From a virus (Duplodnaviria; Caudoviricetes), in the IMG/VR virus record IMGVR_UViG_3300043036_000433, positions 1-35,172 of that record: a DNA stretch of 35,172 bases; one strand, given 5' to 3'. Position 1 is the stretch's first letter; each line of letters opens with the position of its first letter. A model generated the notes under the pieces. The model was not told the DNA's origin. It saw only the letters and a list, made by a program, of their open reading frames with translations, and ran no database searches. The position numbers were made by a program, and so were the translations under genes. Shown here piece by piece: positions 5,436-21,572 of this stretch.

Positions 5436-5734
5436 ACCTAATTGCATATGACTATGTTAAAGCGGCCCACGCTCAAACAATTATAGAAACAAACGCAACT
5501 GAAGTACTCGCAAGTTTAGGGTCAGATGTTGCCTACCTGAACTTAGCGGGGCCTATTAGTCATGCATACTACAAGCTTGTTAAATCACTAATTACACCAG
5601 AACTATGGGACTGGTGTGAATGGTGGATGTATGAGTGTGATTTTGGCACTGAGTATAGAATATTTAAAATCAACCATAAAACTTACATCACCAATGAAAT
5701 TACACTAGAAGAATTTTTATCAATAATTGACTAA
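5432..5734 (+). CDS. Hypothetical protein
   Basis: 100 aa; WCEWWMYECDFG block typical of phage small proteins. Confidence 0.7.
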   Translation: MNLIAYDYVKAAHAQTIIETNATEVLASLGSDVAYLNLAGPISHAYYKLVKSLITPELWDWCEWWMYECDFGTEYRIFKINHKTYITNEITLEEFLSIID

Positions 5735-5775: not shown

Positions 5776-6051
5776 ATGAAACCAAACACCCAATACTACC
5801 TAGACAAACTACAAGAAGAAGCGGCTGAAATCATACAAGCGGTCTCTAAAATCCGCAGGTTTGGGCCAGATAGTCAACACCCACAACGTAATTCAACCAA
5901 CTTGCAAGAACTGGTTGGAGAACTAGAAGATTTCTTAGCCCTAGTTGCGGCACTTGAAGCAGATAAAGTATTTGACCTGTCCAAAAACCAACCCAGAATT
6001 GCCCATAAATTCAAGCAAATCTACAAGCCAGTTGACCCTAAACAGCAGTAG
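5776..6051 (+). CDS. MazG-like NTP pyrophosphohydrolase
   Basis: KLQEEAAEIIQAVSKIRRFG…LVGELEDFLA gives the EExxE/ExxD all-alpha NTP-PPase motif; start uncertain (5734 or 5776). Confidence 0.75.
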   Translation: MKPNTQYYLDKLQEEAAEIIQAVSKIRRFGPDSQHPQRNSTNLQELVGELEDFLALVAALEADKVFDLSKNQPRIAHKFKQIYKPVDPKQQ

Positions 6052-6118
6052 TTTATATAACTCATCGACTTTGTCTAAAGTATCCATACTAACATCTCAA
6101 GCAAAACTAAAAACGCAC

Positions 6119-6147
6119 TTGAATTTCACCAAAAAGTATGATAAAAT
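6119..6147 (+). promoter_or_regulatory. Sigma70-type promoter
   Basis: TTGAAT-17-TAAAAT with TG extension. Confidence 0.65.
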
Positions 6148-6179
6148 ATATGTATAAGTTGAACAAGACAACACTAAAA

Positions 6180-6370
6180 GAGATTTACAAAATCGCACAC
6201 AAGCACGGCGATCAGAACTACCTTCAACAGTTCAGAGCGACGCGCAGCTTGTGTAGCGAGTTTGAATAAATCTCACATTTTATCTAATGATGCAAATAGC
6301 AAAGCTATTTTTATTTTTTGGGTTTTTGTAATTAATTTAAATTAAGGAGCATAATTCTTATGCTCTTTTT
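6180..6370 (+). other. Hairpin-rich, AT-rich non-coding region (small RNA or replication-origin candidate)
   Basis: 95-nt imperfect stem 6180-6274, short hairpin plus T-run 6294-6320, AT tract, and hairpin AAGGAGCATAA/TTATGCTCTTT 6344-6370. Confidence 0.5.
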
Positions 6371-6509
6371 GGTTTATCTGGATTTAACTGGATAACTACA
6401 ACCAACTAAGCTAATTTTCCCACCTTTACGCACTGGGACTCTCTAGCCAAAGTTTACTTATTAGGGTCAGGGTATTTACCCAAAACCAGCTTTTTAGCAA
6501 GGAAAAATC

Positions 6510-7529
6510 GTGTACCACACCACAGTAATCAAAAAAGACTTTAAGTCAATCCCTTTCGATCAGTGCTTAGAAACCTATCGAGATGCAGCAGATATGGCTG
6601 AACAAACAGCCGTTACTGCACTAGAATACGCTCACAAACAGCAGCTTAAAGAAATGGAAAAGCTGTATAATGAGGTTAGTGAAGCTCCGTTTGAGGGTAA
6701 CATGTCGGACAAGTATTCTCAGCCACAACTAAGCCCTGAAAAGCGCTTAGAAATTCGTCGTAAGGCTGGCAACAAAGCTATTTCGGAGATCTTTATTCCC
6801 CGTTATAGTCTAGACAAAATGTGGACTTGGATGATGCCGCAGGTAGTTGCCTACATAGCTCAACTGGCTCCACGTATCAGACCCAATGAACTTGGTACGC
6901 TTGAGGGTCAGGTAGATGGTGTGGAATACATTAAGCAGCACTTCTTTTCAGGTAATCCGTGGATGGAGGGGCTTTACCGATTTTTAATGATTGATACCAA
7001 GGGTTCGTATGTACAACAGCAGTACAAAGGTGATGCCCGTAACTACTGTGCGTTAGTTCCACTAATACCTTATGCTCACAAACTGCACAATAGCCTACCT
7101 TATTCAGTTTGGGGTCGCAAAAACTTGCGTTATGTGGTTAACGAATCCTTAGCCCAAGCTATGGTATGCGAAGTCCCTAAACTGGAAACTGAACGCGTAC
7201 TACAAATCCGCAACCAAGGGTTGATGGTTAAAACAGGTGCTAAAGCTGGTGAGTCCAGAAATCCACTAACCACTTATAAATTGTACTCAATCCAGGATAC
7301 TGAGATTGGTAACATGCCTGAGCTTGCACAAACCATGCTTACGCAGATATGGTGTGCTCACCCCGATAACCGCACCAAATACATGGTCTTAGACCCCGAA
7401 GACTGGGATCGAGTGCCTCCTCCACTTATCAATACTAATGTGTTTCATCACGAAGTAGCCTCTGCAAGTGTTTCCACTCACAAGATTACTGCAATGGCAA
7501 ACGGTAGCTTAGCACCATGGGACTTATAA
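6510..7529 (+). CDS. T5 D2-like protein (replication-associated)
   Basis: YCALVPLIPYAHKLHNSLPYSVW and MLTQIWCAHPDNR…MVLDPEDW resemble T5 D2 as I recall it; GTG start with AAGGA RBS; followed by a D3-like gene as in T5. Confidence 0.65.
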   Translation: MYHTTVIKKDFKSIPFDQCLETYRDAADMAEQTAVTALEYAHKQQLKEMEKLYNEVSEAPFEGNMSDKYSQPQLSPEKRLEIRRKAGNKAISEIFIPRYSLDKMWTWMMPQVVAYIAQLAPRIRPNELGTLEGQVDGVEYIKQHFFSGNPWMEGLYRFLMIDTKGSYVQQQYKGDARNYCALVPLIPYAHKLHNSLPYSVWGRKNLRYVVNESLAQAMVCEVPKLETERVLQIRNQGLMVKTGAKAGESRNPLTTYKLYSIQDTEIGNMPELAQTMLTQIWCAHPDNRTKYMVLDPEDWDRVPPPLINTNVFHHEVASASVSTHKITAMANGSLAPWDL

Positions 7530-7531
7530 CC

Positions 7532-7837
7532 ATGAAATATACCACTGAAAACACTAAAAAATTAGTTGATGACTACTTAATGGGAGTGACCGTGTATGCA
7601 CTAGCTGAAGAGCTCGAGGTGCCAGAGCGATCAATAATTGCCAAGCTCTCCAGCTTAGGTGTGTACCAAAAAAAGCAGTACCTAAACAAACGCGGTGAGG
7701 TGCCAACAAAAAAGTCGGTACACATCGAACGGATCGCGGAATTGCTACAAGTTAACCTTGAATTGCTAGAATCGCTGGAAAAGGTCAATAAGCAGGTGCT
7801 TATTATGATCGAACAGAATTTAGAGTCAAAAACCTGA
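7532..7837 (+). CDS. T5 D3/A2-like HTH DNA-binding protein
   Basis: KYTTE…LAEELEVPERSIIAKLSSLGVYQKK…LESLEKVNK; clearly paralogous to the ORFs at 9049, 10278 and 13460. Confidence 0.7.
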   Translation: MKYTTENTKKLVDDYLMGVTVYALAEELEVPERSIIAKLSSLGVYQKKQYLNKRGEVPTKKSVHIERIAELLQVNLELLESLEKVNKQVLIMIEQNLESKT

Positions 7838-7879
7838 CCCTAAACTGAACCAATCAGCGATAATCGCACTTAAATGCAC

Positions 7880-7916
7880 AAAAGCCCACTAATTCTTATA
7901 TTAGTGGGCTTTTTTT
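7880..7916. terminator. Rho-independent terminator, probably bidirectional
   Basis: AAAAGCCCACTAAT-TCTTAT-ATTAGTGGGCTTTTTTT. Confidence 0.85.
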
Positions 7917-8017
7917 CGTCTTGGTCTGGGTGCCAAAAATTGTCGCACTTGCTCAAGTTTAGGGAACACCGTTAGGCAATTTCTCAAGTTTAGGGTCAGA
8001 GTGTGTAGAAAATACAC

Positions 8018-8054
8018 TTGACACTATATAGGTTTCCCACTTATAATTTGGCGC
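8018..8054 (+). promoter_or_regulatory. Orphan promoter of the 18-bp-spacer/GGCGC class
   Basis: TTGACA-18-TATAAT-TTGGCGC; no gene downstream on +. Confidence 0.6.
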
Positions 8055-8077
8055 AGAACGCGTTTAAATTTTCGACA

Positions 8078-8114
8078 ACAAAAAGCCCACACAGGTGATC
8101 AAACCTGGTGGGCT
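8078..8114 (-). terminator. Rho-independent terminator ending the putative ncRNA
   Basis: Minus strand reads AGCCCACCAGGT-TTGATC-ACCTGTGTGGGCT followed by TTTTGTTG. Confidence 0.75.
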
Positions 8115-8901
8115 AGTTGATTGTCGACACCGCGGATCGGTGTATGGCCTTAACCGTTTGTTACGCAACGTCCGAAAGGACGTCCAGTCCAAGTGTTCAC
8201 GTATATAGTAACAACGATTGCTGACAATTTTATAGTACAGTTTTTTGTTTGGGATAGTTACTGTAATTGTACTCTCCATGTCGCTAGTAGTATCTTGGCA
8301 TGCTCTACACAACAGATGTTACTCCGGTGCTGGGTTTGCAACTTCCCACAACTACATTCCTGGAGTTACCCAGATCTTAATTAGACGATAGCTGTATTTA
8401 TCAGGTTCTTTCCTGTTGATGTGGTGTCAGCCCGTGCCATGGGTGTACATTCCCTGGACTCCATCCTTGACCCTAAACCGCCTTGATTGGGCAGTTTGGG
8501 AGACTGCCGCGAAATCAGACTAGATGATAATTTAGGGTTTCGGTCTTGTTTTAAACTGTACTTGGATTACTGCAGTTTAGGGTCAGACCATCATCAGAAG
8601 GTTACCCGTATTGGTGGGCTGCAACTAGAGAATTCGGTTGCAATCAAGTTGTTATACCACAATAAATGTGGACCTCATAACACCCATAAAACATATAAAT
8701 ACTAGCCCTGCGAAATCTCAAAAGTTCCCTACTACCGAGAAAGGCCTTTCAACTGTGTGCACCAGAGCCTAGCGGGGATTCGCGTCTGCAAGAGAGATAC
8801 CTATGCCTAGTCAAGGCTAGTACTTATATGCTTTGGGCTGTGGCTCGGTTTTCCCCACAATTAAGAACGCATCCGTCAAGTCAGACCGCTGTTCACCCTA
8901 T
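8078..8901 (-). ncRNA. Putative large (~820 nt) structured non-coding RNA
   Basis: Bounded by consensus promoters and a terminator, has no credible ORF, and contains many nested stems including a 16-bp long-range helix with a G-U pair on this strand. Confidence 0.6.
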
Positions 8902-8907
8902 ATATCT

Positions 8908-9022
8908 ATTATAACACGAGACGAGTAGCTGTTTCAAGTAAAAAATTATCAGTGTTGCTACTCGTCTCGGCTATTGTTTGTTTCTAAGATATTATTATAT
9001 CAAAAGAAGGGGGTCAGATCAA
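8908..9022 (-). promoter_or_regulatory. Two tandem sigma70 promoters
   Basis: TTGAAA(8937-8932)-18-TATAAT(8913-8908) and TTGATC(9022-9017)-17-TATAAT(8999-8994); no ORF follows either. Confidence 0.7.
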
Positions 9023-9048
9023 GTTTATTTTTTCTGACCCTAAATTGC

Positions 9049-9363
9049 TTAAGCTTTAACAGCTTGTGCAATCAGCTCCAGTGCCTCACGGGTAGCTTTC
9101 TCCAGTGACTCCAGCAATTCTTCGTTGGTATTGATAGCGTGAGCAATCTGTGCAATCAGCTCAGCTTTGCGAGGAGCGGCTTGGCCCTTGGCTTTCGTTT
9201 TTGCGTGGTACACGCCTTCTTTGCTCAGTTTAGCCACAATGCTACGCACGGTTTTATCCATGCGAGTTGCAAGTGCTTCCACGGATTCGCCAGCTTGGTA
9301 GGCCGTGACGATCTCCAGGGTCATTTCAGGGGTGTAGTTTACAGTTTTGGTGGTAGTCATCAT
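9049..9363 (-). CDS. A2/D3-like HTH DNA-binding protein, paralogue 2
   Basis: VNYTPEMT…KTVRSIVAKLSKEGVY…LESLEKAT; AAGGA RBS; promoter TTGACG-17-TATAAT at 9430-9402. Confidence 0.75.
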   Translation of the reverse strand: MMTTTKTVNYTPEMTLEIVTAYQAGESVEALATRMDKTVRSIVAKLSKEGVYHAKTKAKGQAAPRKAELIAQIAHAINTNEELLESLEKATREALELIAQAVKA

Positions 9364-9410
9364 ATGTCCTTTGTTATGGTTTCTGCGCTGTTTAAGATTC
9401 TATTATAAAC

Positions 9411-9545
9411 TCAAAAGGGAACATCGTCAAATTCAAAAAATTCGCGGTGTGTGTGGGTAGCTTCGACAATTTCGGATACTTCCGCATCCACAAATTCACA
9501 GTACCATTGCTCTTGGTCCGCTGTGAAAAATTCACGGTCTGTCAT
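9411..9545 (-). CDS. Acidic 44-aa peptide ending in FEFDDVPF
   Basis: AGGAAGGA RBS before ATG 9545, TATAAT just upstream; MTDREFFTADQEQWYCEFVDAEVSEIVEATHTHREFFEFDDVPF. Confidence 0.7.
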   Translation of the reverse strand: MTDREFFTADQEQWYCEFVDAEVSEIVEATHTHREFFEFDDVPF

Positions 9546-9641
9546 GTGTGGTTCCTTCCTGTTGATAAATAAATTATAAAACAAATCACAAAGTGTGCCA
9601 AGTATAAATTTACACACTTGACCCTAAATTGGTCCAGACGT

Positions 9642-9870
9642 GGTAGTTTTTACACTTGACACTCACACTTGCACTGGCGCGGTAGAATTTACACTTGACA
9701 CTAGCTCTCGCACTGGCGCCGCAGGCGAGCCTGCTATGCTGCAGTGCAGCATACTGGTCGAATTGACGACAATGGTCGAATTGACTACGATTAACCGGTC
9801 GCTTCAAGCGACCATATCGCCGATGGTGACCATTGCCAAAATGGTAACGATTGCCATTTTGGCAACGATT
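9642..9870. repeat. Cluster of tandem repeats and palindromes (includes cassette copy 1)
   Basis: Two 39-bp units (9642-9680, 9681-9719), GCAGGC-GA-GCCTGC, TATGCTGCA-G-TGCAGCATA, two 18-bp units (9755-9790), GGTCGCTTCAAGCGACC 9797-9813, TTGCCAAAATGG/CCATTTTGGCAA. Confidence 0.85.
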
Positions 9871-9875
9871 GGATA

Positions 9876-9904
9876 AAAAATAACCCTGGTCAGCGCCAGG
9901 GTTA
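9876..9904 (-). terminator. Rho-independent terminator
   Basis: TAACCCTGG…CCAGGGTTA stem with an A-run on + (T-run on -), just after the 9920 stop. Confidence 0.7.
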
Positions 9905-9919
9905 TCAGCAAATTGAATA

Positions 9920-10219
9920 TTATTCAAAATAACTATCATCAGTTACGATAGTATCAATCATATTATCAAAATCAGCAAAGCGCATTTTAACAGTTTGACC
10001 ATTTTCAAAACGGGTCATTGCCCAATACTTGCCGACTTTTGGACGATTTTTCTTTTCATTATCAGCGCAAATTGCAGTGCTAAATTCTACCAAATTGCCC
10101 ACGTGGGCAAATGCAACAGTGGTTTGCCCCGCGCGAACAAATTGCACATGGGGCAAAAACTTTTTCATATCCTTGAAAACGGATTTTTCAAATTTGCAGA
10201 GTTTTGTATTGGATTGCAT
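9920..10219 (-). CDS. Hypothetical protein (99 aa)
   Basis: MQSNTKLCKFEK…; AAGGAAA RBS and TGGTATAAT upstream. Confidence 0.7.
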   Translation of the reverse strand: MQSNTKLCKFEKSVFKDMKKFLPHVQFVRAGQTTVAFAHVGNLVEFSTAICADNEKKNRPKVGKYWAMTRFENGQTVKMRFADFDNMIDTIVTDDSYFE

Positions 10220-10277
10220 TTTAGTTTCCTTAAAAATTAAATTATACCACAAAATCGGGGCTTGCGCCCCGATAGGC

Positions 10278-10607
10278 CTACAGTGGCTTAGAATTTGCCA
10301 GAGCGGCGAAAATCTTAGCTAGCGCCGTTTTATTGGCTTTGGTCAGCGATTCGATTTCTGGTTCGGTCATATTCAAAACCGCGCCGATAGCGTCAGCAAC
10401 CGCGTCTTTTTTCACAACTGCTTCGCCGGTTTTAGTGGCATAGGTTTTTTTCTGGTAGACTTTTTCACGCGACAATTTAGCCACAACCGACCGGACAGTT
10501 TTGCCCATTTTTTCGGCAATCATTTCCGCAGTCATTCCAGCCTGATAATCGGCAACCATTGCAACGGTTTGCTCTGGAGTATAATTCACGACAGTTTTGC
10601 TAGTCAT
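10278..10607 (-). CDS. A2/D3-like HTH DNA-binding protein, paralogue 3
   Basis: MTSKTVVNYTPEQT…IAEKMGKTVRSVVAKLSREKVY; AAGGAAA RBS; promoter TTGAAA-17-TATAAT at 10681-10653. Confidence 0.75.
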   Translation of the reverse strand: MTSKTVVNYTPEQTVAMVADYQAGMTAEMIAEKMGKTVRSVVAKLSREKVYQKKTYATKTGEAVVKKDAVADAIGAVLNMTEPEIESLTKANKTALAKIFAALANSKPL

Positions 10608-10727
10608 ATTTTTCCTTTTTTTACCGCTGCACAATCGCTGCGGTATGGATATATTATAAGCGATAAACTGGGGTTTTTCAAGATTATTTTTAAATTTGCG
10701 CAAATACAACATAGGGGTAAACCCCTA

Positions 10728-13459: not shown

Positions 13460-13783
13460 TCAGGATTTCTCAGCCTTGATAAAATCAGCGATTGCCTTAA
13501 GTGCAACCTTATTCGCTTTGGTAAGCGATTCGGTATCCGATTCGCTCAAGCCAAGCGCCTCACCGATATAATCGGCAACCATATCTTTTTTGACCACAGT
13601 CTCACCCGTTTTGGTCGTATACGTTTTGGCAACGTATACCTTTTCGCGGCTCAGTTTGGCAACCACAGAGCGCACAGTCTTGCCCATTTTTTCAGCGATT
13701 GCCTCAGCGGTAATGCCCGCCTGATAATCGGCAACCATGCTCAGGGTTTGCTCGGGAGTGTAGTTTACAGTTTTTGCAGTCAT
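13460..13783 (-). CDS. A2/D3-like HTH DNA-binding protein, paralogue 4
   Basis: Near-duplicate of 10278..10607 (identical IAEKMGKTVRSVVAKLSREKVY block); AGGA RBS. Confidence 0.75.
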   Translation of the reverse strand: MTAKTVNYTPEQTLSMVADYQAGITAEAIAEKMGKTVRSVVAKLSREKVYVAKTYTTKTGETVVKKDMVADYIGEALGLSESDTESLTKANKVALKAIADFIKAEKS

Positions 13784-14720: not shown

Positions 14721-15083
14721 TTACGCCTTCAATCCGATTTTCTTGCACAATGCGCGAAATTGTGGCAGTGGCATATCTGAGCGCATACGATTGATACCGT
14801 CACAAGCCAAGATAACATTACCAACTTCGTAACCTTTTGTATTGTCGATACGGTCGATTGTGCACAGATCAAACACCACGGCACCTTCGACCAAACCACG
14901 AACAATTGTCATTGGCATTTGTGTGTGGAAGCATTCGCCATTTTGACCATGAAACAATCCGGTAAGGTAGTCAATTGTAACATTGTCGTCAGATTGCAAA
15001 CCTTTCATCTTGTCACGCGAGCGAGCCATTTTCAAGCTCTTAGCGAAGAATTGTTCCAGAGGGTTGCGAGTTGATTTTGCCAT
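14721..15083 (-). CDS. HNH/His-Me-finger endonuclease-like protein
   Basis: Q.GECFHTQMPM…TIDRIDNTKGYEVGNVILACDGINRMRSD; AAGGT RBS, TATAAT upstream. Confidence 0.75.
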   Translation of the reverse strand: MAKSTRNPLEQFFAKSLKMARSRDKMKGLQSDDNVTIDYLTGLFHGQNGECFHTQMPMTIVRGLVEGAVVFDLCTIDRIDNTKGYEVGNVILACDGINRMRSDMPLPQFRALCKKIGLKA

Positions 15084-15278: not shown

Positions 15279-15917
15279 CTACCACAACTTCCACAGCCGT
15301 TGCCACCAATTGGCCTTTAAGACCCTAAACCAACGCTGTTCAGCACTTCTGCACTGTGTGGCTAATAAGTTTGCTTCATGCTTCCAGTACTCCAAATCGG
15401 CCTCAAGTTTCCTGTATTCCGCATTTGCCCGGGCGTCCCGGACTGCCCTAATTGTCCACGATTCATCAAGCAGTTCATAGTCCAGTTCAAGTTCTTGGAC
15501 AGCAGTTTTAAGTGTGTCAACTTCATTTTCAAGCTCACCGGCCTTGGTGGCCATGTTTTCCAAAGCCATTAAGGTTGTAGCAGTTGAGTAGATTTGATTA
15601 CCTCGTTCCATGTGACGAATTAGAGCCCACTGCTCGGCCTCGGTTTTGATTTTGGGAACTTGCGTGTTTAGGGTCGGCTTTAAAAAGTTAATCCAATAAC
15701 CCTCATACTCGTCTAATAAGTCTGGGTGGCAGTTGACTAGTACCGTAGCTTGAGGGTAACAGTGATCGCTAAGGTAGTAGGCTCGCAACATATTTTTAGC
15801 TGCAGTACCTTTGCTTAGTTTATCTGCATGCTGACGCCAACGAGTTTCTAGGTGCAAGGACTTGCCTACATAAGTATCACCATTTAAGAAAGTTAATTGG
15901 TATATTCCAGAGTCCAT
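15279..15917 (-). CDS. GIY-YIG nuclease-domain protein with C-terminal coiled coil
   Basis: MDSGIYQLTF…TYVGKS…RWRQH…E.YWI…PTLN; C-terminal heptads and WWQRLWKLW tail. Confidence 0.8.
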   Translation of the reverse strand: MDSGIYQLTFLNGDTYVGKSLHLETRWRQHADKLSKGTAAKNMLRAYYLSDHCYPQATVLVNCHPDLLDEYEGYWINFLKPTLNTQVPKIKTEAEQWALIRHMERGNQIYSTATTLMALENMATKAGELENEVDTLKTAVQELELDYELLDESWTIRAVRDARANAEYRKLEADLEYWKHEANLLATQCRSAEQRWFRVLKANWWQRLWKLW

Positions 15918-16047
15918 AATAAGCCTTAAAAAACATATTTTACCGGTTTGTGCTGTAACAGTCAAGTCTAGATTTATCTCCGGCAAAAATTTAAGGTTGT
16001 TAGTAGACTTGCTCCTATGTTATACTCTACCAAAGGATTATACCCAA

Positions 16048-19601: not shown

Positions 19602-21572
19602 ATGAAAAATAAAGTACTACATTTGAATAGTGCTTTTACCATGAAAGAACTTCCTAACGCAGGCGACTCTGGAACTGAGTCTGTTTTTATTGAAGGCTAC
19701 GCAAGTACCGTTGATATTGACAGAAGCGGAGACGTAGTCCCTAAAAGCGTTTGGGAAGCAGGAATTCAAAACTATTTAAAGAATCCGATTATCTTAAGTC
19801 AACATGATTATGACGACCCTATTGGTCGCATGGTTGATTATAAGATTGACGACAAAGGTTTATGGGTAAAAGCTCGTATTTCTTCAGCTGCTGAAGAATG
19901 TTTTAATCTTATCAAAGACAAAGTATTAACGGCTTTTAGTATCGGATTCAGAATCATGGATGCCGAATACAACTCAGCTGCAGAAGTATTTTTAATAAAG
20001 GAACTTGAACTAGTCGAAATTTCGGTAGTATCAGTACCTTGCAATCAAAATACCCTATTCGATTTATCTAAAGCTTTTTCAGATGCTGCGGATTATCAGA
20101 AATTTAAACAGCAATTTGCACCCAACGGCGACTCAGCTAAAGGGCTAGAATCCACTACGGAAGCAAAGAGCACAACCACAAAGGAATTGGAAATGACCCA
20201 AGAAGAAATGCAAAAAATGCTTGCAGATGCAGCTACTAAAGCTGCTCAAGAAGCAACTACATCCCTTTTAGCTGCTCAAGCTGCTAAAAAACTAGAAGAA
20301 GAAGTGGCTGCTAAGTCTGCTGCTGATCTAGATGCTCGTATCAAGTCTGCTGTTGCTGCTCAAGTAACTGTTGGCGAAAGCGGAGCTGAAAAGTTACTAG
20401 CTGAAGTTACTAAGCGTTTCGAAGACCAAGCTGCTCAATCTAAGAGCGCTCTAGCTGGTTTAGAAGCTGCATTAACAGAAAAAGCTGCTGAGATTGCAAA
20501 AATCCAAGCTAGCAAAATGCAATTCACAGACACTAACAAAGCTAACGGTTCTTACTCAGACCGCGAAACAGCTGTTATGTTGTCTAAAATCACTGGCAAG
20601 TCTATTCAAGATACGGCATACGGCCGCGATCTAATCGAAAAGACTGGTCAACACATGCCAAGCGCTACATGGGAACTAGAAGTTTCTACAAACATGGAAG
20701 CTGAAGTTCGTCGTCGTCTAGTTGTTGCTCCGCTAATCCGCGCAGTTAACATGAAGACCAACGTTATGACTATGCCTCTAAACCCAGAAGCTGGTTTAGC
20801 ATCATGGGTTGTTAACAGCGATTTCGGTGGAGCAAATAGCTCTGGCGGTACAACTGCTACTACTGGTCAAACACCAGGTCGCGGTTCTCCACACCAGTTA
20901 AAAGAAATCACTTTGAACGCTTACAAAGTAGCGACCAAAGAATATCTAAACTACGAAGAAGAAGAAGACAGCCTATTGGTTATCATGCCTATCGTTCGCG
21001 ATGCTATGATTCGTCGTCTTGCTCGTACTGTTGATCGTGCTTACTTGTTAGGTGCAGGCTCTGGTGCTGATCCAGTTACCGGTCTAGCTAGCTACGCTAC
21101 TGGTACAAACTTCACTAGCGCTAACGGTGCTGCAGCTTCTACAGTTGCAACTATCGCTAACCTACGTAACCTACGTAAAAACCTAGGTGCATGGGGTCTA
21201 GACCCGGCTGAAGTTGTTTATGTTGTTTCTACAGAAATCTACTACGATTTACTAGATGACACTACATTCCAGACAATGAACCAAGTTGGTCCACAAGCTA
21301 CGTTACTAACTGGTCAAGTTGGCCAAATCGGTAACAGCCCAGTTCTAGTTTCCGCAGAATTCGCTTCTAAGGGTACTGGTACTACTGGCGCAATCGCTTT
21401 TGCACCAGGTAACTTCATGGCAGGTAACCAACGCGGTCTACGCATGGATACTCAAGAATTAGTTGAAACACAGCGTCGTGTTCTAGTTGCGTCTCTACGC
21501 ACTGGTATGACTCAAGTTACAACTAACCTAGGTAACGGTGTTTCTAAGTTCGCTTGGGGCACCTTAAGCTAA
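19602..21572 (+). CDS. Fused prohead protease / scaffold / HK97-fold major capsid protein
   Basis: N-terminal IEGYAST…DRSGDVV…QHD…PIG…FSIGF…EISVVSVPCN; Ala/Lys coiled coil; C-terminal T5 pb8-like capsid domain. Confidence 0.92.
   Translation: MKNKVLHLNSAFTMKELPNAGDSGTESVFIEGYASTVDIDRSGDVVPKSVWEAGIQNYLKNPIILSQHDYDDPIGRMVDYKIDDKGLWVKARISSAAEECFNLIKDKVLTAFSIGFRIMDAEYNSAAEVFLIKELELVEISVVSVPCNQNTLFDLSKAFSDAADYQKFKQQFAPNGDSAKGLESTTEAKSTTTKELEMTQEEMQKMLADAATKAAQEATTSLLAAQAAKKLEEEVAAKSAADLDARIKSAVAAQVTVGESGAEKLLAEVTKRFEDQAAQSKSALAGLEAALTEKAAEIAKIQASKMQFTDTNKANGSYSDRETAVMLSKITGKSIQDTAYGRDLIEKTGQHMPSATWELEVSTNMEAEVRRRLVVAPLIRAVNMKTNVMTMPLNPEAGLASWVVNSDFGGANSSGGTTATTGQTPGRGSPHQLKEITLNAYKVATKEYLNYEEEEDSLLVIMPIVRDAMIRRLARTVDRAYLLGAGSGADPVTGLASYATGTNFTSANGAAASTVATIANLRNLRKNLGAWGLDPAEVVYVVSTEIYYDLLDDTTFQTMNQVGPQATLLTGQVGQIGNSPVLVSAEFASKGTGTTGAIAFAPGNFMAGNQRGLRMDTQELVETQRRVLVASLRTGMTQVTTNLGNGVSKFAWGTLS

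Follow-up and report, generated by a model that had tools for sequence, protein, structure and literature searches.

A conserved non-coding cassette of RNA modules around a predicted hammerhead ribozyme in T5-related phages

The stretch analysed here (IMG/VR record IMGVR_UViG_3300043036_000433, or G000; Duplodnaviria, Caudoviricetes; hereafter the window) comprises the whole record of 35,172 nt and represents a 35-kb phage fragment. Between two convergent genes, A and B, it contains a gene-free gap at 7838-9048, in which the original prediction placed a structured, promoter-to-terminator unit of ~820 nt on the minus strand of a T5-related phage. This description is upheld, chiefly by comparison among relatives, the unit is not present in Rfam, and the features of the gap, given in the direction of minus-strand transcription, are as follows.

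8994-9022, minus: promoter P1, of sigma-70 type with an extended -10 box, predicted start at ~8987, with a copy of a repeated DNA word 12 nt upstream
8917-8969, minus: leader hairpin of the P1 transcript, 13 bp (8969-8957 with 8929-8917), enclosing the -35 box of promoter P2
8908-8937, minus: promoter P2, predicted start at ~8901, 3 nt ahead of M1
8835-8898, minus: module M1, a three-way junction (helix P1, helix P2, UUAAU, helix P3) with a 3-bp pseudoknot between CGG in the P2 internal loop and CCG in the P3 loop
8689-8834, minus: stem insert of variable length between M1 and M2
8616-8685, minus: module M2, a second copy of the M1-type junction, with pseudoknot GAG/CUC
8465-8601, minus: predicted type I hammerhead, with stem I (8601-8598/8468-8465), CUGAUGA (8597-8591), an extra U (8590), stem II (8589-8585/8546-8542), GAAA (8541-8538), a long stem III and GUC (8471-8469)
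8547-8584, minus: stem II extension of 38 nt, carrying a word copy and complementary to the cleavage arm (8481-8468)
8282-8415, minus: module M4, a hairpin with an AAAGAA loop, an AAAUACA linker and a four-way junction closed by GCUA/UAGC
8078-8114, minus: intrinsic terminator, a hairpin with a U-run, ending the unit
8018-8047, plus: antisense promoter, facing the terminator and followed by no open reading frame (ORF)
7835, 7989, 8468, 8576 and 9035 (within 7835-9044), both strands: five exact copies of the word TGACCCTAAA/TTTAGGGTCA

Related loci were retrieved with gene A (52 from IMG/VR and 80 from metagenomes) and with gene B (51), and motif patterns retrieved 39, 62 and 4 further loci, all these sets overlapping. 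In the 52 gene-A loci the order U-A-gap-B/C is kept, U being the gene that precedes A, while the gap itself varies from 660 to 2080 nt among relatives and contains no ORF that is kept in position. When the window was aligned, without regard to structure, with 23 gaps picked by sequence similarity, conserved minus-strand islands split by long indels emerged. The inventory of modules was made by profile searches on 52 loci, 50 of them usable and representing 44 distinct gaps, with profiles partly built from the same sequences as were counted; it gave the hammerhead in 31 gaps, M1 in 25, M2 in 23, M4 in 5, an alternative 3' domain in 14 and tRNA-Glu(UUC) in 10, and not a single module on the opposite strand of the 44 gaps. 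Modules are gained, lost and swapped among relatives, and the distance from M1 to the terminator ranges from 457 to 1387 nt (21 relatives). The alternative 3' domain, for which Rfam holds no match, replaces M4 on the 3' side of the hammerhead (L006, L007, L009, L019, L023, L025-L027, L029, L034, L037, L039, L045, L049), and an additional conserved element of ~150 nt, absent in the window, lies between promoters P1 and P2 in most relatives (L004 at ~5500-5680, L007, L009-L012). The tRNA is likewise optional and ARAGORN found none in the window; wherever a cassette carries one it is tRNA-Glu(UUC) (L002, L004, L005, L010, L018, L019, L021, L023, L026, L037, L089), several of them scoring below the Rfam gathering cut-off, and L006 holds a decayed tRNA-like remnant at the same place.

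A coding role for the gap was considered and rejected. The window has small ORFs of 63-82 amino acids there, which are not kept as ORFs in relatives, in agreement with the earlier view that the region has no credible ORF; the minus-strand ORF of 82 amino acids matches L089 in two pieces only, and module lengths are spread across all three frames (33, 27 and 27 of 87).

The central module is the hammerhead, which was absent from the original prediction, where several of its stems had been listed as separate helices. The repeats GGTCT/AGACC and TAAACTG/CAGTTTA noted there are both present, but they are hammerhead stem II and the stem II extension. In 48 sequences the core elements C3-U4-G5-A6-N7-G8-A9, G12-A13-A14, the A15.1-U16.1 pair and H17 occupy invariant columns, and 14 of the 16 stem pairs show two-sided changes among 48 distinct sequences; this set was picked with a descriptor that requires pairing, but the unselected alignment presents the core and the stems as well. 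The type I descriptor matched 81 of 222 loci of a redundant set, and its strand was the same throughout the gene-A-oriented loci (49 vs. 0). Cleavage is predicted after GUC, between 8469 and 8468, with stem I left open. In one detail the window copy departs from the canonical core, as the 10.1-11.1 pair does not directly follow A9 but is preceded by the extra U at 8590, which is found also in L010, L089 and L327-L330. Rfam hammerhead models gave no match at E ≤ 10 in the window (5800-10500) or in L037 (4292-5929), and none at the gathering threshold in 19 loci, probably because stem III is long (~50-70 nt). In loci bearing the tRNA, the hammerhead core starts 5-9 nt past the tRNA CCA in 8 of 10 cases, the cut falling ~90-100 nt past CCA, and we infer that the ribozyme separates products and does not trim the tRNA.

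The second conserved component is the junction represented by M1 and M2, which share one fold: helix P1, helix P2, which has both an internal loop and a variable hairpin, then a UURAU linker, and helix P3, whose loop begins near GAA and ends with AG. UURAU, GAA and AG are the invariant unpaired nucleotides of this motif, and the linker reads UUAAU or UUGAU in 87 of 87 copies found by the descriptor. The pseudoknot lay outside the search filter, and all three of its pairs are formed in 41 of 41 distinct M1 copies, which carry four sequence versions, in 35 of 37 M2 copies, and in 8 of 9 copies of a third junction type, M3, the ninth being a mis-parse. Eight or more word pairs occur at this position (CGG/CCG, CAG/CUG, CGA/UCG, UAG/CUA, GAG/CUC, GAC/GUC, AGG/CCU, AAG/CUU). 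Some relatives have M3 as tandem copies on the opposite strand, and in L172, L183, L186 and L208 such copies lie on the plus strand upstream of U. The junction model detects exactly two copies in the window, and five whole records carry one to three, at this locus only; in GTDB genomes 13 pattern matches were obtained, of which only L230 scores with the model. This 2.9-kb contig from a Saccharibacteria metagenome-assembled genome holds two junction copies and is probably a mis-binned piece of a phage. The motif has no match in Rfam. The hairpin TGCAAC/GTTGCA at 8620-8642, read earlier as an isolated helix, is present, and its role is that of a stem of M2.

The strong evidence for structured RNA is comparative, namely the conservation of modules in which compensatory changes occur, always on the minus-equivalent strand. 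Covariation among homologues, which had been named as one way to check the prediction, was found for the hammerhead, M2/M3, the joint junction and M4, with scores exceeding 500 of 500 shuffles as well as slid controls. In M2/M3, 16 of 19 pairs show two-sided changes (43 sequences), along with all three pseudoknot pairs, and in M4, 13 of 19 pairs do so in the 23 aligned sequences of 29 collected. The M4 sequences were picked by sequence words and not by pairing, and three with inserts, the window included, are misaligned in the last stems. Folding energy is less informative. The whole region folds modestly better than chance, but with z-scores of -2.72 on the minus and -2.93 on the plus strand (20 shuffles each) the energy does not choose a strand, and M1, M4 and the 3' tail, each taken alone, fold no better than shuffles.

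The variable stem is closed by the predicted 16-bp helix (8692-8707/8815-8830), which is present as described, its single imperfection being G-U on the minus strand and a mismatch on the plus strand; the insert has a z-score of -3.35 on the minus and -0.75 on the plus strand, the base of the stem is common to L089, and in relatives the insert is absent, short or longer. In M4, the window carries an insert of ~55 nt in the third arm, and it is within or beside this insert, common to few relatives, that the crossing pairings suggested at 8320-8373 are found. Their words are all present (ACTCC at 8321, GGAGT at 8362, CTGGGT at 8330, ACCCAG at 8368), and, judged by eye, 4 of 6 and 3 of 5 pairs persist in L089. 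The local hairpin 8373-8360 is supported in 23 sequences. The hairpin at 8168-8183 also exists, but it is not conserved in the closest relatives, being private to the window genome among those aligned, and therefore its GAAA loop on the plus strand is uninformative on strand.

The signals framing the unit are conserved on the minus-equivalent strand as well. Both predicted minus-strand promoters were confirmed, each with a TATAAT -10 box (8999-8994 and 8913-8908), an extended TG and a -35 box. The arrangement of word and promoter at P1 matched a strict regular expression in 18 of 44 relative gaps and is also seen in the alignment, and a -10 box lies 9-22 nt upstream of M1 in 32 of 40 distinct relative copies. 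The leader hairpin has a z-score of -7.8, and L001-L003 place differing inverted repeats at the same spot (by eye). The terminator was confirmed as a hairpin with a U-run, although a consensus scanner did not list 8114-8078; a terminator-like expression matched in 29 of 44 relative gaps. The plus-strand promoter at 8018, noted earlier as facing the region, matches the consensus at 12 of 12 positions and recurs in 34 of 44 relative gaps; the word precedes it in 27 of the 44. In addition, the promoter-like word TTTACACTTGACACT is found on the plus strand in the segments 8005-8047 and 9639-9716, two further copies lying between genes B and C, where only doubtful ORFs occur and where relatives keep such copies; these could be polymerase sinks or antisense promoters.

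In regard to expression, only two small-share runs contained parts of the stretch; they were inspected as assembled contigs, and uncovered bins prove nothing. The freshwater metatranscriptome X1 has contigs of relatives that match M2, the 5' part of the hammerhead, M4 and the 3' tail, several at a depth of ~100-380, and one of 1513 nt also extends into gene B; run X2 matched 8029-8204 alone. The X1 contigs are a weak hint of transcription. A contig ending in adapter near 8436-8460 was considered as evidence for the cut site and set aside, since it does not map the cut.

Taken together, we consider it probable, with considerable room for other readings, that the gap holds a conserved cassette of RNA modules arranged around a hammerhead, likely made as one transcript and predicted to be cut in two, whose RNAs likely act in trans as tRNA-shaped decoys or scaffolds. 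According to this model, the host sigma-70 polymerase would transcribe the unit leftward early in infection, from promoter P1 or P2 (~8987/8901) to ~8078, giving an RNA of ~820-900 nt. The hammerhead would then cleave itself after GUC at 8469, into a 5' piece of ~430 nt with M1, the insert, M2 and the ribozyme body, ending in a 2',3'-cyclic phosphate, and a 3' piece of ~390 nt with M4 and a 5'-OH end. RNA ends with 5'-OH resist 5'-monophosphate-dependent decay. The cassette may work like a phage tRNA island, that is, as an operon of slots and modules, into which some relatives insert tRNA-Glu(UUC) between M2 and the ribozyme. In the least certain step, M1 and M2 would adopt a shape like the signal recognition particle (SRP) RNA's Alu core or the tRNA elbow and bind a tRNA-recognising host factor early in infection, candidates being the translation machinery or a tRNA-targeting defence nuclease; it is the tRNA slot, together with the Alu/tRNA-like topology, that makes such a factor the best guess for a partner. 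A more specific version, in which M1 and M2 are protein-free mimics of the SRP Alu core or tRNA elbow, and a stable two-headed RNA released by the hammerhead docks in the elongation-factor site of the ribosome or baits tRNA-cutting defences, reshaping early translation, is a long shot that draws on analogy. The anatomy of the cassette is well supported, cleavage in the window genome, judged from modelled folds, is uncertain, and the binding partner is a guess by analogy.

Several observations weigh against this interpretation. The hammerhead was undetected in 13 of 44 gaps, and 7 of 44 held none of the modules searched. Percentages of paired positions are inflated for the hammerhead and for the P2 and P3 stems of the junction, as these were chosen by descriptors requiring pairing, and relatedness among sequences was not corrected for. 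In the window, the probability of stem III is 0.07, the lowest of 48 sequences, most of which exceed 0.9; three of the four contexts modelled give a competing helix a probability of 0.7-0.88, and the P1 transcript gives it 0.2. The repeat GATGAT/ATCATC, named in the original prediction and located at 8523-8528/8590-8595, is able as RNA (GAUGAU/AUCAUC) to sequester the hammerhead core. The core in the window has an extra U after A9; hammerhead cores can tolerate such an insertion. The RNA evidence consists of assembled contigs of relatives from one RNA study, possibly containing DNA, from which strand, ends and level are not readable, and the host-factor step draws on topology and context.

The folding of the window copy leads to an alternative with an outside but real chance, namely that the cassette is the same but its hammerhead is held off or switchable: a word in stem II would pair with the cleavage arm over 14 bp, leaving the RNA whole unless a protein or kinetics frees the arm. 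The pairing between 8468-8478 and 8575-8585, listed earlier as an alternative 11-bp helix, indeed exists, and on the minus strand it lengthens to 14 bp if one G-U is allowed; its two sides are copies of the DNA word, and it would block the cleavage site. In a 143-nt context the off fold is preferred by 0.8 kcal/mol (p 0.92), and the active hammerhead fold has p 0.06-0.30 depending on context, lying 0.8-2.4 kcal/mol from the minimum free energy (MFE). The stem II extension that carries this word copy is found in four other contigs (L327/L329, L328 and L330, the last being the contig of L089). L330/L089 likewise take the off fold, with p 0.99, but L327/L329 fold the hammerhead with p 0.99 and in L328 the hammerhead is the MFE structure, although both carry the extension, so that conservation does not extend to the competing pairing. 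When its context is lengthened a little, the window too has hammerhead stems II and III as its MFE structure, and the extension would form a hairpin of its own before the cleavage arm is transcribed. As judged from modelled folds, the extension is a feature of a subclade whose blocking helix is not conserved, and the hammerhead of the window may be damped. The reading of the stem II insert as an antisense switch was rejected, being not conserved in three of the four other insert-bearing contigs.

The word itself and the genes flanking the gap are the basis of a further alternative. At no more than one mismatch, the window contains TTTAGGGTCA 20 times where 2.4 would be expected, the matches lying on both strands and also inside genes. 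In three cases a -35 box follows a copy at a distance of 12-19 nt, against a background of 3.5% per position; this arrangement is suggestive of an operator bound by the flanking proteins, and the word is likely a protein-binding site on DNA. It also forms the cleavage arm of the hammerhead and recurs in hairpins of the relatives' RNAs. The flanking genes and their surroundings are the following.

6510-7529, plus: protein U, 339 amino acids, preceding gene A
7517-7837, plus: gene A, small D5-like DNA-binding protein (phrog_323, E 1e-4; phrog_1725, E 5e-4), left flank
7880-7913: terminator of gene A
9049-9363, minus: gene B, paralogue of A (phrog_1725, E 6e-7), right flank
10278-10712 and 13460-13783: further paralogues of A/B

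A single phage thus holds four paralogous small D5-like or helix-turn-helix proteins (7517-7837, 9049-9363, 10278-10712, 13460-13783). The PHROG matches of A and B are weak and point to D5-like and DNA-binding families, in place of the D2/D3 genes originally proposed as neighbours; genes B and C had no tblastn match in cultured phages, which leaves the A2 label for the flanking proteins unconfirmed. Protein U stands upstream of A in all 52 loci and has 327 homologues and a confident helical model (predicted local distance difference test score, pLDDT, of 91); it is without a match in Pfam, PHROG, NCBIfam or PDB and matched only two uncharacterised phage proteins. It could be a partner of either the RNA or the DNA word.

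From this arrangement it could be proposed that the RNA acts as scaffold or decoy towards the D5/A2-like proteins encoded next to it, or towards U, serving transcription control or two-step DNA entry, with the word bound on both DNA and RNA. The A/B paralogues flank the gap in nearly all loci, the word stands ahead of promoters and occurs in the cleavage arm and in RNA hairpins, as described above, and the block immediately precedes the terminase genes, a place taken by the DNA-transfer gene in a Demerecviridae relative. This relative is the Vibrio phage VspSw_1, Vibrio phages being nearest in the terminase large subunit (49%). We regard this proposal as unlikely: in phages with a differing cleavage arm, the sequence of that arm is not repeated across the genome as a word, deviant arms occur in several phages rich in the word, other relatives also carry tandem junctions on the opposite strand upstream of U, and the A2 label lacks confirmation. 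Co-variation between word and hammerhead arm was suggestive in the 8-kb L018 locus and was not upheld over whole records, the L018 genome having 5 copies of its own deviant arm against 4 of a control.

Other parts of the window are of separate interest. A second ORF-free gap of ~450 nt (6052-6509) lies upstream of U, with a terminator-like hairpin at ~6345-6375 and a word copy at 6460. A GIY-YIG domain protein (15279-15986, minus) and an endonuclease VII/HNH-like protein (14721-15083, minus) are encoded directly upstream of the terminase genes, and a head maturation protease and the major capsid protein are apparently fused in one ORF of 656 amino acids (19602-21572, plus). The gap region had no BLASTn match among 50,697 records of cultured phages.

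It is also conceivable that M1 and M2, or M4, represent a new class of self-cleaving ribozyme and that the cassette is a processing array of several ribozymes, since the junction is a small pseudoknotted motif with invariant unpaired nucleotides, occurring beside a hammerhead and a tRNA and in tandem copies. This appears improbable, as in most relatives M1 begins a few nt from the predicted start, where a cut would release little, and no Rfam ribozyme model was matched.

A single, ornate, continuously folded RNA of ~820 nt of the GOLLD/ROOL type, which the original prediction offered beside a new class, has become very improbable. Size, phage origin and a tRNA within the unit in 10 of 44 relatives speak for it, and GOLLD is described as also having a variable 5' part and a linker able to hold tRNAs (PMC12286853). 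However, the Rfam covariance search gave no match to either family at E ≤ 10, the length varies from 457 to 1387 nt, the modules are exchangeable, and the internal hammerhead would split the RNA. More remote still is a DNA-level element (an operator array, an injection-stop-like region or an origin) with RNA folds as by-products, which would fit the dense word repeats on both strands, the strand-neutral folding energy and the long, repeat-rich, untranslated iss region of T5 (10.1101/866236), but the hammerhead core, one-strand G-U pairs, covarying pseudoknot and inserted tRNA make sense as RNA only; the word can act on DNA alongside the RNA.

Uncultured T5-related phages of a widespread clade retain what appears to be a large non-coding operon, which includes a hammerhead and two or more motifs lacking in Rfam 15. 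The pseudoknotted junction is a candidate for a new class of functional RNA, the modules of the cassette, at 60-140 nt, are within reach of synthetic RNA, and the long-stem hammerheads point to phage ribozymes missed by standard scans. Alu/tRNA mimicry, if true, would present a new phage route to the control of host translation or the evasion of tRNA-targeting defence. No description of this RNA and no viral Alu-domain mimic was found in the literature searched, which lacks most subscription journals; large supplementary lists of candidate RNAs (e.g., of PMC5737381 and PMC3088659) could contain the motifs.

Comparison with known systems presents both likenesses and differences. Rfam was searched with the window (gathering threshold and E ≤ 10), 19 loci (gathering), L037 (E ≤ 10) and 8 loci (E ≤ 1), and only the tRNA passed. 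With GOLLD and ROOL the cassette has in common that it is a large structured phage RNA of 600-800 nt or more linked with tRNA, which is not distinguishing, and it differs in its interchangeable modules, its internal predicted self-cleaving ribozyme, and its 3' end, where the universally conserved 3' region of GOLLD and the intertwined 5'/3' fold of ROOL have no counterpart and two alternative domains occur (5 and 14 of 44 gaps), with none detected in the rest. A homo-multimeric RNA cage is a further hallmark of GOLLD and ROOL.

The likeness of the junction to the SRP Alu core is topological: both have a three-way junction, a closing helix, a helix whose loop takes part in pairing, a short linker, a second helix with a purine-rich loop and a loop-loop pseudoknot, and there are words in common with the SRP genes fetched, AGCGG/CCG in M1 and the loop end CUCUAG in M2. 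The B. subtilis Alu shape was itself likened to tRNA by its authors (Kempf et al. 2014, PMC4231752), and the SRP Alu domain binds the elongation-factor site of the ribosome. On the other hand, the module pseudoknot has 3 bp compared with 5 in Bacillus, the linker is UURAU and not the UGU that most SRP genes fetched have between helices 3 and 4, the pairing strand lies in an internal loop capped by a variable hairpin, and the module has no S domain. Covariance models were negative in both directions: the phage model (R1) gave 0 matches at E ≤ 10 in 26 Alu regions of large-SRP genes, with the SRP model (R2), neither the window nor any of 23 phage loci yielded a complete module, the best match (E 0.14) covering the 5' half of a single M1. 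An attached helix 5 with S domain is likewise lacking, RF01854 having no match in the window. Homology was therefore rejected and the Alu core kept as an analogy only, by which the junction may work like an Alu core without being a member of that family.

The theta ribozymes of phages, described as HDV-like and cutting within 5 nt of the tRNA 3' end (PMC10879173), resemble the cassette in that a self-cleaving ribozyme follows directly 3' of a phage tRNA, as in 8 of the 10 tRNA-bearing relatives. The ribozyme of the cassette is a hammerhead, not a fold of the hepatitis delta virus (HDV) type, and it persists without the tRNA, as in the window.

The closest counterparts are the type I hammerheads of bacteria and phages. 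Perreault et al. 2011 (PMC3088659) reported phage intergenic hammerheads and active core variants, with an A9 insertion absent from the available portion of the text, and the ribozyme of the cassette agrees with those described there in the full core (CUGANGA...GAAA...UH), three covarying stems, an open stem I, the GUC site and an intergenic location in phages. It is distinguished from them by its long stem III, the extra U after A9 and the 38-nt stem II extension, and by its position in a non-coding operon with no ORF downstream.

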